Positions 36,626 to 43,940 of a DNA stretch of 64,000 nt are shown here, piece by piece. The DNA lies in contig CAWBZV010000004.1 of NCBI GenBank assembly GCA_963793305.1, positions 96,001-160,000 of the forward strand, written 5' to 3'. The stretch is from an uncultured Gemmatimonadales bacterium. GTDB taxonomy: Bacteria; Gemmatimonadota; Gemmatimonadetes; Gemmatimonadales; Gemmatimonadaceae. Under the pieces are notes generated by a model. The model searched no databases. It was not told the DNA's origin and saw only the letters and a list, made by a program, of their open reading frames with translations. Position 1 is the stretch's first letter. Each line of letters begins with the position of its first letter. Position numbers and translations under genes: made by a program.

Positions 36626-38125
36626 ATGGCTGACGCCGCCGCCGCGTTCTCGGGCCTGACGCTGATCCTGCTCTCGAACCGGGAGCCGTATGAACACGTC
36701 TCCCGACGCGGGGAGATCGAAACGCGCTACCCGCCTGGCGGGCTCGTGAGTGCGCTCGACCCCACGCTGCGCCGGACCGACGGTGTCTGGATCGCGTGGG
36801 GCTCGGGCTCGGCCGATCGCGTCACCGCCAATGCGTGGGGCCGACTGCAGGTCCCACCGCCGCCGGACGATCCCGCCTATACGCTGCGCCGGGTGTGGCT
36901 CGACGAGGCGGACGTCGAAGGCTATTACCTCGGATTCGCGAACAGCGTGCTCTGGCCGCTGTGTCATCTGCTGGTCCAACATTATCAATTTCGCGCCGAC
37001 CAGTGGGAACGGTATCGCTCGGTCAATATGCGATTCGCGGATGCGGTGCTCGAAGAAGCCCGGCGTGTTGGCGGCCAACCCATCATTTGGATCCAAGACT
37101 ATCATTTCGCGCTCGTTGCCGATCAGGTGCGCTCCAACGCGCCGGAACTCTTCATTCATCAATTCTGGCACATCCCGTTCCCGCCGTCGGAAATCTTGCA
37201 TCTGCTCCCATACGGCGCATACGAGGCCATTCTCCGCGGACTCGTCGGGAACGATCTGCTGGGCTTCCACACCGAGCGATACGCGCAGAACTTCCTGAAC
37301 TGTGTCGCGGATCTCTTGCCAGGAGCGACCGTCGATAGAGAGGCGCGTACGGTCTGCTACGAGGGCCGGACCATGGCCGTCGGCGCCTTCCCGATCAGCA
37401 TCAACGTCGAGCGCTTCGAGCAGCTGAGCGAGGCGCGCAACGTCGCGGCCCATGCGCAGGAGTTGCGTCGTCAGTATGCGACCGGTGGCAAGCAGCTTGG
37501 GGTGAGCGTCGACCGGATCGATTACACGAAGGGCATCCTCGAGCGTCTCCGGGCGCTCGATCTCCTGTGGCAGGAATCGCCGGAGCTTCGCGATCGCTTT
37601 ACGATGCTCCTGGTCGCGACGCCGTCGCGATCCGAGCTCGCGCCCTATTGTGCGCTCCAGGCCGAGACCGTGAGTCTGGTCGACGCGATCAATCGCCGGT
37701 TCGCGACGCCGGGCTGGACACCGATCGTTCTCGTGACGAAGAACGCCGACGCGACCGAGCTCGCCGCCACATATCGGGCCGCGGATCTCTGTCTCGTCTC
37801 GTCGCTCCAGGATGGGATGAACCTCGTGGCGAAAGAATTCATCGCCTGTCAGGCCGACGAGCAAGGCGTGCTCGTCTTGAGCCGGTTTACCGGAGCGGCC
37901 GAGGAGATCAATGACGCCGTGCTCGTCAATCCGTTCAACATCGACGGCTTCGCGGCCGGGATCCGGCGGGCGCTGGAGATGCCGATCGAGGAGCGCCAGC
38001 GGCGCATGCACGCGATGCGGGAGCGCCTGCGCCACGCCACGATCTTCGACTGGCTCCAGTCGATCACCGACCGGGTGCAGGCGTTGATCGCCGCCGGACC
38101 GGACTGCGTTACGCGGTCTCCGTGA
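36626..38125 (+). CDS. otsA: Trehalose-6-phosphate synthase
   Basis: SNREP, GGLV, WIQDYH, HIPFP, VDRIDYTKG and DGMNLVAKE. Confidence 0.95.
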   Translation: MADAAAAFSGLTLILLSNREPYEHVSRRGEIETRYPPGGLVSALDPTLRRTDGVWIAWGSGSADRVTANAWGRLQVPPPPDDPAYTLRRVWLDEADVEGYYLGFANSVLWPLCHLLVQHYQFRADQWERYRSVNMRFADAVLEEARRVGGQPIIWIQDYHFALVADQVRSNAPELFIHQFWHIPFPPSEILHLLPYGAYEAILRGLVGNDLLGFHTERYAQNFLNCVADLLPGATVDREARTVCYEGRTMAVGAFPISINVERFEQLSEARNVAAHAQELRRQYATGGKQLGVSVDRIDYTKGILERLRALDLLWQESPELRDRFTMLLVATPSRSELAPYCALQAETVSLVDAINRRFATPGWTPIVLVTKNADATELAATYRAADLCLVSSLQDGMNLVAKEFIACQADEQGVLVLSRFTGAAEEINDAVLVNPFNIDGFAAGIRRALEMPIEERQRRMHAMRERLRHATIFDWLQSITDRVQALIAAGPDCVTRSP

Positions 38126-38892
38126 ACGTTGATCGAGACGCGATCGCCTCGCGTCTGTCCGGTACGCCGCTCGTCCTCCTCCTCGACATCGACGGCACGA
38201 TCTCGGCCATCGCGCCACGGCCAGTGGACGCCACTGTACTGCCCATGGCCCTCGACGCGCTCAGGTCACTGGTGCGGGCCGATGGCGTTGTTGTCGGGCT
38301 CGTCTCCGGACGAATGGCGGACAATGTTCGCCGGATGGTACGAATCGAACCGGCGTGGGTGATCGGCAATCACGGCGCCGAGATCGTCTCGCCGGACGGG
38401 CAGGAAACGGTCGAGCCGAGTGTTGCCTCGTTCGAGGGGGTCGTCGCCGCCGCGCGCCGATCACTCGAAGCGAGCGGCGTCGCGGTCGAAAACAAGCGGT
38501 GGACCCTGACGGCGCACTATCGAAACGCAGACCCGGAGCGGATCCCGGTGATCAGCGACATTGTCTCGCGCGTGGCGGCCGAGCATGGGCTAGTCGTGGT
38601 AGCCGGGAAAAAAGTCCTGGAGCTGCGACCGCCCGTGACCGTCAACAAGGGAACGGCAGTTGTCGCACTGGCTGATCACGTCGGAGGTTTCAGGTCTGGG
38701 GCATCGATCCTCTATGCGGGAGATGACGCAACCGACGAGGATGCGTTCATCGCGCTGCGTTCGCGCGACCCACGCCCCGTGACGTTGCACGTCGCTGGCG
38801 AGGGATCGCAGCAGACGTGTGCGGAGTATATCGTAGCGGACCCAATGGAGATGGGCAGCGTGCTGGCGTGGCTGGCGGAGTTGCGCGGATGA
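38122..38892 (+). CDS. otsB: Trehalose-6-phosphate phosphatase
   Basis: LDIDGT, GNHGAE, ELRP..NKG and GDDATDEDAF. Confidence 0.93.
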   Translation: MNVDRDAIASRLSGTPLVLLLDIDGTISAIAPRPVDATVLPMALDALRSLVRADGVVVGLVSGRMADNVRRMVRIEPAWVIGNHGAEIVSPDGQETVEPSVASFEGVVAAARRSLEASGVAVENKRWTLTAHYRNADPERIPVISDIVSRVAAEHGLVVVAGKKVLELRPPVTVNKGTAVVALADHVGGFRSGASILYAGDDATDEDAFIALRSRDPRPVTLHVAGEGSQQTCAEYIVADPMEMGSVLAWLAELRG

Positions 38893-40751
38893 CGACGTTC
38901 ACCGGCCGATACGCGGCGATATCCGATTACGGCATCATCGGCGACCTGCACACGGCCGCCCTCATCTGCCGATCGGGGTCCCTCGACTGGTGCTGCTTTC
39001 CCGCGTTCGACTCGCCGTCGGTGTTCGGCGCGATCCTCGACGCCGAGCGTGGCGGGCATTTCGCGATTCGTCCGGTCGGCCAGTACACGGTCGAGCAGCG
39101 CTATCTCCCGGCGACCAGCGTGTTGGTCACGAATTTTCATACCCCGGACGGCGGCATCGTCGAGATGACCGACTTCATGCCGATCGCGCCGAGTGGGGCG
39201 GCGCGGCCGTTTGCCGAGATCCACCGGGGCGTCACCTGCGTGCGGGGCGAGGTGGAGATCGAGATCCGGTTTGCGCCGCGGTTCAACTACGGCGCGGGCG
39301 CGTCCTACGTGAATCCGCGGCGGCACGGGGTCCTGGCGACCGACGCCGAGGACAAGGTGCTGACGTTGGCGGCGCCACAGGAGCTCTGGTGGCAGTTGGA
39401 CAACGGCTCGGCGAGCGCGACGATCAAGCTGGTCGCCAGCGAGTCGACCTGGTTCGTCCTGCGATTCGACGACGACGAGGTTCGGGCCGTCGGGTCCTAC
39501 GAGTCGGAGCGTCGGTTGGCCGACACCGTCTCATTCTGGCGCGAATGGGTCGGGCGCATCACGTACGACGGCCCCTATCGCGCCGCCGTCGAGCGGTCGG
39601 CGCTGACCCTCAAGCTCCTCTGCTACGAGCCGACGGGCGCGATCGTCGCGGCTCCGACGACCTCGCTGCCCGAGGAGATCGGCGGGGTCCGGAACTGGGA
39701 CTATCGCTTCACCTGGATCCGGGACTCGGCCTTCGTGCTCTACTCGCTCAGCATCCTCGGGCACTCCGAGGAGGCCGACCGTTTCATGTCGTTCTTGAAG
39801 CGCGTGGCGCGGAAAACGACCGATACGCACCTGCAGATCATGTACGGGATCGACGGTCGGCGAAAGCTGACCGAGGAGGTCCTGGCCAACCTGGAGGGCT
39901 ACCGCGGCTCGGCCCCGGTTCGCGTCGGCAACGCGGCCTATGCGCAACTCCAGCTCGACGTCTATGGCGAGCTTCTCGAGACGGCGTTCCTCTGGAGCCG
40001 CAGCAACGAGGTCAGCGAAGGGACCTGGGTGACGCTCGAGCGCCTCGTGAGCTGGGTGGCCGCCAACTGGCGGCAGCCCGATAGCGGCATCTGGGAGGTG
40101 CGCGACACGCTCCAGCATTACGTCATGAGCAAGGTCATGTGCTGGGTGGCGCTCGATCGTGGCATCCGTATGGCGAAGGAGTTCTCGCTGCCCGCTCCCA
40201 TCGAGCAATGGGAGGTCGAGCGGGACGCCATCCATGCCGACGTCATGGAGCATGGGTGGAGCGAGGAGAAGCAGAGTTTCGTCCAATACTACGGGACGGA
40301 CGCGCTCGACTCCTCGAATCTCGTCATTCCCATGATGGGATTCTTGCCGCGCAACCACCCGCGCGTGGTCGGCACGGTCAAGGCGGTCCTCCGCGAGCTG
40401 ACGTGCTGCGACGACGAGATGTGCTATCGCTATCGGAACGACGACGGCCTTCCGGGCGACGAGGGCGTCTTCTCGATCTGCACATTCTGGCTAGCCGAGG
40501 CCCTGGCCCTCTCGGGAGAGCGCGAGCACGCCGAGCGGATCTTCAAGCGCATGCTGGGCCACGCGAACCACCTCGGTCTCTACAGCGAGGAGCTGAACCC
40601 TCGCACGGGCGAGTTCCTCGGCAACTTCCCACAGGCGTTCACGCATATCGCGCTGATCAACTGCGCGCACGTGCTCGACGTGCTGGCCGAGCAGGACCGC
40701 CGGTCGTCCGGGTCGACACCGGTGGTGTTGGACGAGCCGGTCCTGCGATAA
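38889..40751 (+). CDS. Glycoside hydrolase family 15 (trehalase/glucoamylase-like)
   Basis: AAPTTSLPE, RNWDYRFTWIRD, QLDVYGE, GIWEVR and LGNFPQAFTH. Confidence 0.93.
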   Translation: MTTFTGRYAAISDYGIIGDLHTAALICRSGSLDWCCFPAFDSPSVFGAILDAERGGHFAIRPVGQYTVEQRYLPATSVLVTNFHTPDGGIVEMTDFMPIAPSGAARPFAEIHRGVTCVRGEVEIEIRFAPRFNYGAGASYVNPRRHGVLATDAEDKVLTLAAPQELWWQLDNGSASATIKLVASESTWFVLRFDDDEVRAVGSYESERRLADTVSFWREWVGRITYDGPYRAAVERSALTLKLLCYEPTGAIVAAPTTSLPEEIGGVRNWDYRFTWIRDSAFVLYSLSILGHSEEADRFMSFLKRVARKTTDTHLQIMYGIDGRRKLTEEVLANLEGYRGSAPVRVGNAAYAQLQLDVYGELLETAFLWSRSNEVSEGTWVTLERLVSWVAANWRQPDSGIWEVRDTLQHYVMSKVMCWVALDRGIRMAKEFSLPAPIEQWEVERDAIHADVMEHGWSEEKQSFVQYYGTDALDSSNLVIPMMGFLPRNHPRVVGTVKAVLRELTCCDDEMCYRYRNDDGLPGDEGVFSICTFWLAEALALSGEREHAERIFKRMLGHANHLGLYSEELNPRTGEFLGNFPQAFTHIALINCAHVLDVLAEQDRRSSGSTPVVLDEPVLR

Positions 40752-40845
40752 CCATCACAATTCGCATCGATCAACCGCGGATTTTTGCCCTTAATACCAC
40801 GCTCTCGCGCCGCATATAATGCGGGTTCACCGCCGGGGGCGCTTT

Positions 40846-41040
40846 ATGAAGGCAGACGAAAAATGGGCTCACGGTATGCGGCGCGTCTCCGAACGACGAC
40901 AGAGGGACCTCGCGGCCCTGGCGGCGTTGCCGGATGACGCGATAGACCTTTCGGATGCACCTGAACTGGACACTTGGGACAGGCCGATCGTGGGGCGATT
41001 CTACCCTCGAGTCAAGAAGATTGCAGGCGCGCGTTTGCCA
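40846..41040 (+). pseudogene. BrnA-like antitoxin relic (N-terminal half only)
   Basis: LAALPDDAIDLSDAPEL...GRFYPRVKK..ARL; the ribbon-helix-helix end is absent; TATAAT at 40815-40820. Confidence 0.6.
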
Positions 41041-41087
41041 GCGATGTCGCGCGCACGACAACGACTCTGTCGTCGGACATCTCCGGA

Positions 41088-41096
41088 TGGTAGAAT
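41088..41096 (+). promoter_or_regulatory. Putative extended -10 promoter of the cassette
   Basis: TGGTAGAAT about 30 nt upstream of ATG 41128. Confidence 0.45.
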
Positions 41097-41127
41097 TCGC
41101 CCATTCCCAGGCAAATCGGCAGCGCTA

Positions 41128-41874
41128 ATGGCGGATGTAGAACACCTCAGAAACGCTCCGATCACCGAAGCCCTGCTGGATTTTCGCTGTGTACTCGCGC
41201 AGGGCGATCACAGCAAGACGTTCTTGGATCTAGCAAGGCAAGTCAGTCCCGAATATCCGATTTTGCAGGAGCGTCGGGCTGTAAGCCTCGCTTTTACGAT
41301 CACGCCAGCAGCGACGCCGAGCGCATCGGCCGCCGGCGACGCGACGCTGCAGGGCGTCGTTTGTGTATCGTCGAACGGAAAGGACATCGTTCAGTTTCGC
41401 GCGGACGGATTTAGTTATCACCGTTTGAGCCCCTACGAGTCGTGGGCGGCAGCGTTACCCCGTGCGCTCAAAGGATGGAAGCTCTATTCAGCCGCATTAA
41501 AACCGACGCTCGTACAAATCGCGGTCCGCAACATCAATCAGATCATTGTACCGGACGACGTGAACGCGAGTGACTACCTCACTAACGCGCCTAGCGCTCC
41601 GCTGAACGAGGGTGCCGCTCTCACTGGCTTCTATTCGCGCGTCACCTTACATGACCCCGCACTGCAAGTAAGTGCAGGTATTGTTCAGTCGAGCCAGCCC
41701 TCACTTCGACAGGAACCCAGCTTCTTGGTCGTCTTAGATATTGAAGTCGTGAAAGCCTCCCCAACCGGGCTGCCGGAAACGGCGATCGACGGAGCATTGG
41801 CTGATTTACACGATTACAAAAATCGGCTGTTCTTCGACAGCCTCACCAAACGAGCACTCGAACCCTACCGATGA
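41128..41874 (+). CDS. TIGR04255-like protein of unknown function
   Basis: LRNAPITEALLDF, VQFRADGFSYHRLSPYESW, IAVRNINQI, VLDIEV and LHDYKNRLFFDSLT. Confidence 0.8.
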   Translation: MADVEHLRNAPITEALLDFRCVLAQGDHSKTFLDLARQVSPEYPILQERRAVSLAFTITPAATPSASAAGDATLQGVVCVSSNGKDIVQFRADGFSYHRLSPYESWAAALPRALKGWKLYSAALKPTLVQIAVRNINQIIVPDDVNASDYLTNAPSAPLNEGAALTGFYSRVTLHDPALQVSAGIVQSSQPSLRQEPSFLVVLDIEVVKASPTGLPETAIDGALADLHDYKNRLFFDSLTKRALEPYR

Positions 41875-42326
41875 CAGCAACTGCGATAGCTCCGGTCCAG
41901 TCCTCAGCCTCGGTAACGGAGGAGCGTGAGGGTAGCGAACCCATCGAGAAAAGCTGGCGAAGCAAGATGTCGGTCACGGCGAAGGATGCCGCGTACCGCA
42001 CGCTAGAAAGGGCATATGCGGAGTCGTCCAGCGCGGTAGCGCCTATTACTGCGGTCCTTGCGTACCGGTTTCTCCAAAGCTTGCCAGCCACCTTCCCGCT
42101 TCCCGAGATCGAAGCAGAGCCCGACGGGCGCATCGCGTTCGATTGGTTTCAAGATGATGGCGGGATGCTGACTGTCAGCGTGGGCAGGCGAAACGTCCTT
42201 GCCTACGCGGCCCGCATTGGCCCTAAGACCTCTTACGGAACCGAGGTGTTCCTTGGTGGCGTTCCTGGCGAAATCATGGAACTACTGCAGTGGCTGTATT
42301 CGCCTCTGGCGGTTTCGGCTTTTTAG
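41871..42326 (+). CDS. Conserved hypothetical protein, cassette gene 2
   Basis: ATGA-coupled to gene 1; FLQSLP...PEIEAEPDGRIAFDW motif. Confidence 0.75.
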   Translation: MTATAIAPVQSSASVTEEREGSEPIEKSWRSKMSVTAKDAAYRTLERAYAESSSAVAPITAVLAYRFLQSLPATFPLPEIEAEPDGRIAFDWFQDDGGMLTVSVGRRNVLAYAARIGPKTSYGTEVFLGGVPGEIMELLQWLYSPLAVSAF

Positions 42327-42726
42327 GCGACCGGTTGCTGCGCACGAAGAGCTGTCTCGATTCATATTCGAAAGCAGCCATCTCAAGACGCGCAACACGA
42401 GGGTACATCGCAAGGCGTTTCGGCCTGATAAGCGTCACGAGGTATCAGTCTACCGAACATCTGGAATTCCTCGAGACTTGGCGTGGCGAATCGGCCAATA
42501 CTTCGTTGAGCCGGCGCACGGCAAACGGTCTATCGCCAGAGCTCGGATTGAGGCTACAGCGGTAGTCTTCGCTGGTCTACGGGTCATTCCGGCTGAACTG
42601 CCACCGCGACACGCCTGTATTGTCGGGTGGCCCGCGGGTAGCGATGACGACCAGCTTGCGGCCCAAAGGCAGGCTTATGAGCAAGCATTGGCGGATGCCG
42701 CTCAGCCGGAAATGCGGACCGCGTAG
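42256..42726 (+). CDS. Putative ADP-ribosyltransferase-fold (R-S-H) toxin, cassette gene 3
   Basis: GAGGT RBS then GTG 42256 (start uncertain); LSRF...AF...VSVYR...HACIVGW. Confidence 0.6.
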   Translation: MAFLAKSWNYCSGCIRLWRFRLFRRPVAAHEELSRFIFESSHLKTRNTRVHRKAFRPDKRHEVSVYRTSGIPRDLAWRIGQYFVEPAHGKRSIARARIEATAVVFAGLRVIPAELPPRHACIVGWPAGSDDDQLAAQRQAYEQALADAAQPEMRTA

Positions 42727-42738
42727 TCATCGCTAAGC

Positions 42739-43173
42739 CTAGCTGGGGATTTCGAGCAGCAGGTCACGGTAGAACTTCCATTCCGGATCAGGCATCAACG
42801 ATAGCTCGATCGGGAAGCTGGGGTCGCCGCCGAGGACGGCGTTGAGCGCGCGCTGGGCTTGATCGCGCGTGTCGCAGTACCAGAGCCAACGCCGTTCTCC
42901 GGACTTCATGTTGACCGAGACGAGGATGGCGTGCCGGCCATCCTCCAGCGCTGGAACGATCCGCTCCTCGAATGCGGCCATCTCCTCGAGTTGCTCATGT
43001 GTCGGCAGACCGTACGCCGCGTGCGACTCGTCAACGAAATACGTCCAACGGATCTCCAGAAGGTTAGGCAATGACCGATCGCCGACGACCGCGGCCAGGT
43101 CGGTTCTGACGCGGATGAAGTACGGGTAGCCGTCCTCCATGCCCTTGAGCAGCGTCCAAAGGCTGTCGTCCAT
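42739..43173 (-). CDS. DUF695-like protein
   Basis: IRWTY...GLPT..LEEMAAFEE...GERRWLWY pattern. Confidence 0.7.
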   Translation of the reverse strand: MDDSLWTLLKGMEDGYPYFIRVRTDLAAVVGDRSLPNLLEIRWTYFVDESHAAYGLPTHEQLEEMAAFEERIVPALEDGRHAILVSVNMKSGERRWLWYCDTRDQAQRALNAVLGGDPSFPIELSLMPDPEWKFYRDLLLEIPS

Positions 43174-43184
43174 GGCCCAACATA

Positions 43185-43219
43185 CAAGGGCCGCCAACGC
43201 GAAGCGTGGCGGCCCTTGG
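43185..43219. repeat. Strong intergenic REP-like hairpin
   Basis: CAAGGGCCGCCA-A-CGC-GAA-GCG-TGGCGGCCCTTG. Confidence 0.55.
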
Positions 43220-43778: not shown

Positions 43779-43859
43779 ACCCCTACCTCCATTTACTAAA
43801 AAGATGACGAACTCCCTCTCTGCATCTACGAGCCGCGCAGGCGAATAGTTCCCGCCTGC

Positions 43860-43940
43860 GCCGCTCCGCGGCACGTCGAGGCTCGCTTCGCTCGCTCGAC
43901 TGGTCGGTTTACCAGTCGCTCGCTTTCGCTCGCTCCGTGA
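43860..43940 (-). repeat. AACCGACCAG multi-hairpin element, copy D
   Basis: + strand reads GCCGC-TCC-GCGGC-AC-GTCGA-G-GCTCGCTTCGCTCGC-TCGAC-TGGTCGGTTTAC. Confidence 0.8.

Follow-up and report, generated by a model that had tools for sequence, protein, structure and literature searches.

A TIGR04255-headed three-gene locus in an uncultured Gemmatimonadales bacterium: a candidate toxin-antitoxin-type module with a predicted ART-fold toxin

Layout of the locus and its insertion site

The window (the whole stretch of 64,000 nt that was analyzed) contains three open reading frames on the plus strand, each overlapping the next. Gene 1 (41128-41874, +) encodes a 248-aa protein of the TIGR04255 family, modeled as a curved antiparallel sheet with helices. 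Gene 2 (41871-42326, +) overlaps the stop codon of gene 1 through ATGA at 41871 and encodes 151 aa with a variable N-terminal arm and a conserved C-terminal domain; it is the candidate antitoxin. Gene 3 (42256-42726, +) encodes 156 aa from a GTG start, with a predicted ADP-ribosyltransferase (ART)-fold domain from approximately 42343, and is the candidate NAD-dependent toxin. It starts inside gene 2, where a Shine-Dalgarno-like GAGGT (42243-42247, +) lies 8 nt 5′ of the GTG. All of these junctions agreed with an earlier, sequence-only reading of the window, which had described a cassette of three overlapping genes.

That reading had also called the cassette AT-richer on the basis of spot counts (33, 33, and 42 GC of 60 nt), which were exact. 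The GC content of the three-gene stretch was 57.8%, compared with 65.2% in the whole window, and was the lowest of any equal-length stretch in the window. The GC3 values of genes 1, 2, and 3 were 0.61, 0.66, and 0.59, respectively, compared with 0.78-0.88 in four neighbors. The whole region was covered by one contig in a run that may share its source with the window. Contigs from two other studies were identical to parts of genes 2 and 3 and to the right junction, and misassembly is therefore excluded.

A promoter belonging to the genes themselves had been proposed as well. Its motif, the extended −10-like TGGTAGAAT (41088-41096, +), was present as a motif match, ends 31 nt 5′ of the ATG of gene 1, and represents the single occurrence of the TGnTAnAAT pattern within the window. 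However, it is absent from the output of the sigma-70 scan, whose one hit lies elsewhere, within the left end of the insert (40791-40820, +), and may itself be due to chance (one found versus 0.7 expected in shuffled sequences). The promoter at 41088 is thus unproven.

The three genes are part of an inserted cassette of approximately 2 kb with 58% GC (40752-42736), located between the stop codons of the convergent GH15 and DUF695 genes. Insertion after the GH15 gene had been anticipated, and the insert proved larger than noted. A genome of the same genus (G805) joins window position 40751 directly to 42737 (93-95% identity), and the cassette was also missing at this site in G802, G804, and G806, of the same genus (G803 was left out because it was unreadable at the site). 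Loss in the congeners would be less economical than gain, and the cassette appears to have been recently inserted here. Both ends of the insert have a short CG.TAA microhomology in common, and no terminal repeats of note were found. TIGR04255 trios were present at other sites in three of five congeners.

Within the left end of the insert, and in the same frame as gene 1, positions 40846-41040 (+) resemble the N-terminal half of a BrnA antitoxin; the comparison is with a protein matching Pfam BrnA_antitoxin (46 residues at 37% identity, per-genome E = 7e-5). The reading frame of gene 1 is open from 40819 to 41874, and the segment may be a remnant or part of a longer fused product with an upstream ATG. 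The surroundings of the window copy are housekeeping genes. A cluster for trehalose synthesis and breakdown (36626-40751, +) is kept in the congeners and includes otsA-like and otsB-like genes, assigned by motif, and a GH15 trehalase, assigned by HMM. The DUF695 gene (42739-43197, −) was found at the site in G805 and not in G802 or G806, and thus the site saw more than one insertion or loss. At approximately 43858-43936, a sequence of 50-80 nt has several 84-92% copies in its own genome and in the congeners and is probably a small intergenic repeat.

The three predicted proteins

Gene 3 matched no Pfam, NCBIfam, or PADLOC family. Its structural model (pLDDT 96) was most similar in VIA searches to Tpt1/KptA (Z 8.5, rmsd 3.0, 92 residues aligned), followed by mouse Tpt1 (7.2), AvrPphF (7.1), Tse2 (6.4), CopC (6.1), TreX (5.8), and Scabin (5.7), with DarT and RES toxins below Scabin. 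Foldseek ranked Tpt1 first, not significantly, and returned nothing at E = 0.001 or better. Although the single Z-scores were moderate, the ART fold of the model is secure because the match list agrees, the top VIA chains all belonging to the ART superfamily. The Arg, Ser, and His residues pointed out by the sequence-only reading were at the places given, each on its own strand: the conserved Arg (42358-42360, +) on the first strand (E9-14 of the model), the invariant Ser (42445-42447, +) on the second long strand (E40-44), and the conserved His (42610-42612, +) on strand E96-100, apparently at the position where R-S-E enzymes have a Glu. Relatives of gene 3 formed 1084 clusters at 50% identity (threshold E = 0.001). 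Among the best 149 of these relatives plus the query, Arg was kept in 143 of 150 sequences and His in 149, Ser was present in every one, and 142 had the complete triad. The fold with its conserved R-S-H is thus well founded in the model, and gene 3 is very probably an ART enzyme, with a predicted activity.

The Tse2 triad is R-S-H, and gene 3 had been likened to the Tse2 family. This assignment was not borne out. PF18648 (Tse2) did not match gene 3 or its relatives among 150 members at E = 0.05, and a profile comparison with eight PF18648 loci was not significant (probability 0.24%, E = 0.25), with the conserved R, S, and H in register. Gene 3 does share the ART fold with the Pseudomonas aeruginosa protein Tse2 (PDB 5ako; 104 residues aligned at Z 6.4), but the latter is secreted as an effector and is paired with one immunity gene, whereas gene 3 sits in a trio. 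The likeness to Tpt1/KptA concerns its C-terminal domain only; the motif of Tpt1/KptA is different and the operon context of gene 3 is toxin-like. A second ART subfamily (L125, L195, L196, and L198) had its R-S-H in register with that of gene 3 (HHalign 95%, E = 3e-8), and its TIGR04255 and gene-2 partners were divergent.

According to the accessible text of two papers (PMC8120803, PMC9503650), the Glu of R-S-E enzymes serves catalysis, and phosphate is the acceptor when Tpt1 and RES domains transfer ADP-ribose. Given a His for the catalytic Glu and Tpt1/KptA as the nearest fold, gene 3 would most likely pass ADP-ribose on to an acceptor that carries a phosphate, for instance the end of a nucleic acid, or destroy NAD+.

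PDB sequence searches with genes 1, 2, and 3 gave nothing significant, and an ESM Atlas search gave unnamed clusters only. Relatives of gene 3 were not found in phage or plasmid records or, using two single queries, in viral contigs (all searches of low sensitivity), nor were longer fused forms found, which is weak evidence. The N-terminus of gene 3 is rich in F, W, and L; this is probably a by-product, since the segment falls within the overlap and loci whose genes meet at ATGA/GTGA do not have it. Fusion of genes 2 and 3 by programmed +1 frameshifting, suggested by TTT TAG at the end of gene 2, was considered and rejected, as the stop contexts were unconserved and each locus had ordinary starts.

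Gene 2 belongs to no named family and has no Pfam match. Its column identity was 0.16 over residues 1-35 versus 0.31-0.33 in the conserved domain, which reaches the C-terminus. Of 401 genomes searched with gene 2, 31 had matches, at 38 places; 30 of these places were fetched, and the 11 previously unseen ones were examined. Three of the 11 comprised gene 1 and the second ART subfamily. The other eight had no intact gene 3: gene 1 was present in three, where gene 3 was truncated or absent, and gene 2 stood alone in five. Conversely, gene 3 was without a gene-2-like neighbor at none of 35 places, one neighbor being a weak match only. Thus, gene 2 persists without gene 3 and not the reverse, the pattern expected of an antitoxin and a toxin, and these distributions make the antitoxin role that had been assigned to gene 2 likely.

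The TIGR04255 call for gene 1 held up well (82.9 bits against a curated cut-off of 30, E = 3e-23, positions 2-249 of 252), and no Pfam family matched at E = 1. TIGR04255 was found in 38 of 301 genomes of the phylum and in none of 14 control genomes; a single scan of genome contigs with gene 1 gave one locus. The C-terminal half of the model (pLDDT 94) consists of four strands followed by two helices. McsB was the top match in two fold searches (Z 8.2-8.9), and the arginine kinase catalytic domain reached Z 9.7 (rmsd 4.3, 187 residues aligned over 4-246). The guanidino-kinase catalytic domain is therefore the best fold match of the predicted structure (Z 8-9.7), a weak one, with 5-8% identity, rmsd of approximately 4.3, and nearly equal scores for AdoMetDC, TBP, and RepDE.

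A SecB-like gene 1 found no support. HHalign against five SecB proteins gave a probability of 0.2%, the best fold matches were other folds, and SecB was absent from the best 50 matches of the fold searches, which does not exclude SecB. Since gene 1 does not look like SecB and its best fold match is a guanidino kinase, the term chaperone is unproven for it. The family keeps E14, R130, R134, N137, D204, D206, K231, and N232 at 77-98%, mostly on model strands, and these conserved Arg, Asp, Lys, and Asn residues leave room for an enzymatic role; on balance we lean toward a binding-type stabilizer or sensor. Relative to the TIGR04255 family, the window copy of gene 1 is atypical at positions 130, 135, and 206 (Gln130 and Glu206), and its gene 2 is without the WDGYG motif of gene-2 proteins; the copy may thus be drifting.

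Conservation of the trio and its genomic neighborhood

Like that of TIGR04255, the distribution of gene 3 is patchy. Of 401 genomes from the phylum of the window, 20 had matches, at 24 distinct places; in another class, 11 of 400 genomes had them, at 13 places. After two places in unpublished genomes were set aside, 35 were retained. Gene 2 was clear and directly upstream of gene 3 in 34 of the 35 loci. The full trio, with gene 1 before gene 2 before gene 3, was present in 32, and the arrangement is thus conserved in other genomes; one of the three loci without gene 1 lies at a contig end. The start of gene 2 was −12 to +30 nt from the stop of gene 1 in 32 of 33 loci, with an exact 4-nt overlap in 23. 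Some trio copies were frameshifted, which may reflect decay or assembly error.

In two loci (L054 and L052), an unrelated, unnamed protein replaced TIGR04255 in first place; TIGR04255 is thus not required every time. The protein of L054 (456-938, +), which precedes genes 2 and 3 with an ATGA overlap, has 160 aa and no Pfam, NCBIfam, or PDB sequence match; we take it, by eye, to resemble YbjN/type III secretion chaperone folds. The protein of L052 (2365-2640, −) has 91 aa, lies ahead of a divergent gene 2 and gene 3, had no match in a Pfam scan, and may be DUF3467-like, judged by eye.

A survey of the neighborhoods of TIGR04255 homologs showed tightly coupled trios with varying third genes. Across the 30 TIGR04255 loci fetched, the third gene, sought within 1.5 kb, was of the ART type in nine, of a family that we call CD in 13, a RES domain in one (L010), DUF7689 in one, and another unnamed type in two; none was seen in four. 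The CD family (L003-L006, L009, L012, L014-L016, L018, L027, L028, and L031) has a conserved Cys-Asp, with QG and S/T-x-x-C-D motifs. A likeness to MazF/PemK, suggested by eye, is unconfirmed: comparison with 23 PemK loci by HHalign yielded 0.4%, and the PDB sequence search gave nothing. Five second genes of other trio types, several of them at CD loci, had HTH matches when scanned, one above the cut-off. In a tree of 55 gene-1 proteins (two rows labeled by eye), 29 of the 30 ART-linked proteins fell in one supported clade, which also contained one DUF7689-linked protein and one of another type. Partner swapping is thus old or rare, not constant.

Genes within approximately 5 kb of 20 trio loci were compared with those of 17 arbitrary regions of the same genomes. 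Toxin-antitoxin or defense genes were near 8 of 20 trio loci and 3 of 17 controls (one-sided P = 0.13); with mobile genes added, the counts were 11 of 20 and 4 of 17 (P = 0.053). Both P-values overstate the difference because the genomes are related. The gene caller was home-made and missed some low-GC genes, proteins were classed by hand, and the scan covered 142 of 182 called proteins near trios and 142 of 176 in controls. Type I restriction-modification, ABC-three-component, or methylase genes stood beside L099, L102, L104, and L085. A UvrD-type helicase gene directly followed the trio in L067, L068/L104, and L072/L102, with ABC-three-component, methylase, or toxin-antitoxin genes nearby, and a trio on a Crinalium plasmid, with a third gene of the L022/L023/L085 family, was near type I restriction-modification genes.

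None of the three proteins matched a named system in PADLOC (DB 2.0.0, 2023) at E = 1, in keeping with the earlier proposal of a candidate undescribed system, and 61 relatives of gene 1 gave one weak, unrelated match. In the part of DefensePredictor Table S4 available to us (PMC13092281), at least eight TIGR04255 proteins are given as 'predicted novel defense gene' (log-odds 4.7-9.3). These rows cover the family of gene 1 as a prediction only, with no operon, partner, or fold, and the name TIGR04255 was not found in the accessible screening tables of that paper. A role of the system in phage defense has indirect support and is slightly favored. Full-text literature searches for TIGR04255 and its InterPro and model names gave no match. 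No description of the operon was found in the mostly open literature searched, including the accessible parts of PMC4899435, PMC12133291, and PMC13069673; an earlier description is possible. As far as this search shows, the three-part toxin-antitoxin-type system is probably previously undescribed.

Relation to known systems, proposed mechanism, and rival readings

The closest parallel is CmdTAC, a toxin-antitoxin-chaperone system whose toxin is an mRNA ADP-ribosyltransferase and in which a phage protein displaces the antitoxin from its chaperone (PMC11618068; bioRxiv 10.1101/2024.02.24.581848, as far as their accessible text goes). Both loci have three tightly linked genes with an ART-fold toxin and are candidates for phage defense, and in both an antitoxin arm of low conservation adjoins the gene of the third component (PMC11618068, accessible text). 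The two also differ. By the same text, CmdT resembles diphtheria toxin and its triad is H-Y-[E/D/Q], whereas gene 3 has R-S-H; CmdC is SecB-like, whereas gene 1 is not recognizably so; and the order is mirrored, the gene of the third component coming first here and the arm being N-terminal. One type of third component likewise serves pairs of unrelated folds in the SecB-dependent TAC systems, HigBAC and MqsRAC among them (bioRxiv 10.1101/2024.02.24.581848, accessible text), but here there is no Pfam or profile match to SecB, and gene 2 is without the C-terminal chaperone-addiction tail. The trio would work like the TAC systems but is not one, as it departs from them in SecB sequence, tail position, and toxin triad. 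In ParA-captured toxin-antitoxin systems, the third component is likewise not SecB and is a proposed switch for several toxin types; it combines a ParA NTPase with sensor domains in one fusion protein (bioRxiv 10.64898/2026.10.19.760177, accessible text), and the trio has nothing comparable.

The reading that we prefer, to which we give an even chance, is a mobile three-part toxin-antitoxin-type module, switched by phage, in which gene 1 stabilizes the antitoxin. Gene 3 would be an NAD+-consuming toxin, predicted from its fold and residues. Gene 2 would be a partner-specific antitoxin, with the conserved C-terminal domain restraining the toxin and the variable N-terminal arm depending on gene 1. 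Gene 1, by analogy, may be a regulator, stabilizer, or sensor; on the model of CmdTAC and HigBAC, it would be a shared non-SecB third component that keeps the antitoxin stable and doubles as the switch. Once gene 1 was occupied by a phage product or by stress, the antitoxin would be lost and the toxin would stop the cell. The core of this scheme, that gene 3 is toxic and is neutralized by gene 2, is likely.

The rival readings differ in how much of the scheme they retain. We consider it rather improbable that the module is an ordinary selfish or stress-responsive toxin-antitoxin trio with no phage role. Nine of 20 loci were single insertions among housekeeping genes, toxin-antitoxin pairs were commoner neighbors than restriction systems, the same insert carries the BrnA-like remnant, and the neighborhood enrichment was not significant. 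The restriction-modification, ABC-three-component, and methylase genes beside four loci argue for a phage role, as do the defensive scores of TIGR04255 (PMC13092281 Table S4, available part) and the anti-phage activity of three-part systems of like logic in the accessible text of PMC11618068. At a marginally lower probability, gene 1 may accompany the same toxin-antitoxin pair as an enzyme that uses nucleotides, or as a sensor of them, with a guanidino-kinase/glutamine-synthetase-like fold. Its part would then be to modify the arm of the antitoxin or to respond to a nucleotide signal, and not to serve as a chaperone. The near full-length match to the arginine-kinase and McsB catalytic domains and the charged or polar residues kept from E14 to N232 speak for such a function, whereas the low identity, an rmsd above 4 Å, and the replacements at 130 and 206 in the window copy speak against it; the similar scores of AdoMetDC, TBP, and RepDE may mean only a common curved sheet.

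Least probable, and in our view very unlikely, is a non-toxic gene 3 that acts as a Tpt1-like enzyme on nucleic-acid ends or in ADP-ribose signaling, with genes 1 and 2 as substrate-binding partners. The closest fold is indeed the C-terminal domain of Tpt1/KptA. However, gene 3 is without the Tpt1 N-terminal domain (the match begins at residue 87 of a 179-residue chain) and without the H-H-h motif given in the accessible text of PMC8120803; a RES toxin domain occupies the same slot at L010, and gene 2 survives without gene 3 and never the converse.

Beyond the preferred module, we advance only tentatively, and as doubtful, the broader view of TIGR04255 as a control hub that is widespread and independent of SecB. 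With its kinase-like fold, this one protein would sense phage infection, possibly through nucleotide-dependent chemistry, and would gate toxins of unrelated folds through the N-terminal arms of their antitoxins. The toxins gated would be the two ART subfamilies, RES, DUF7689, and unnamed families. If true, this would define a new class of three-part immune systems. The locus gives a testable role to the unannotated TIGR04255 family, found in approximately one in eight genomes of the phylum sample, and adds a large R-S-H ART family that has no Pfam model. It also suggests that three-part control of toxins arose a second time, without SecB and in mirror arrangement. The third genes of L022, L023, and L085 represent another unnamed family; the L022/L085 family gave no alignment with gene 3. 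The TIGR04255 head gene offers a handle for finding more toxin families without a name at the third position.
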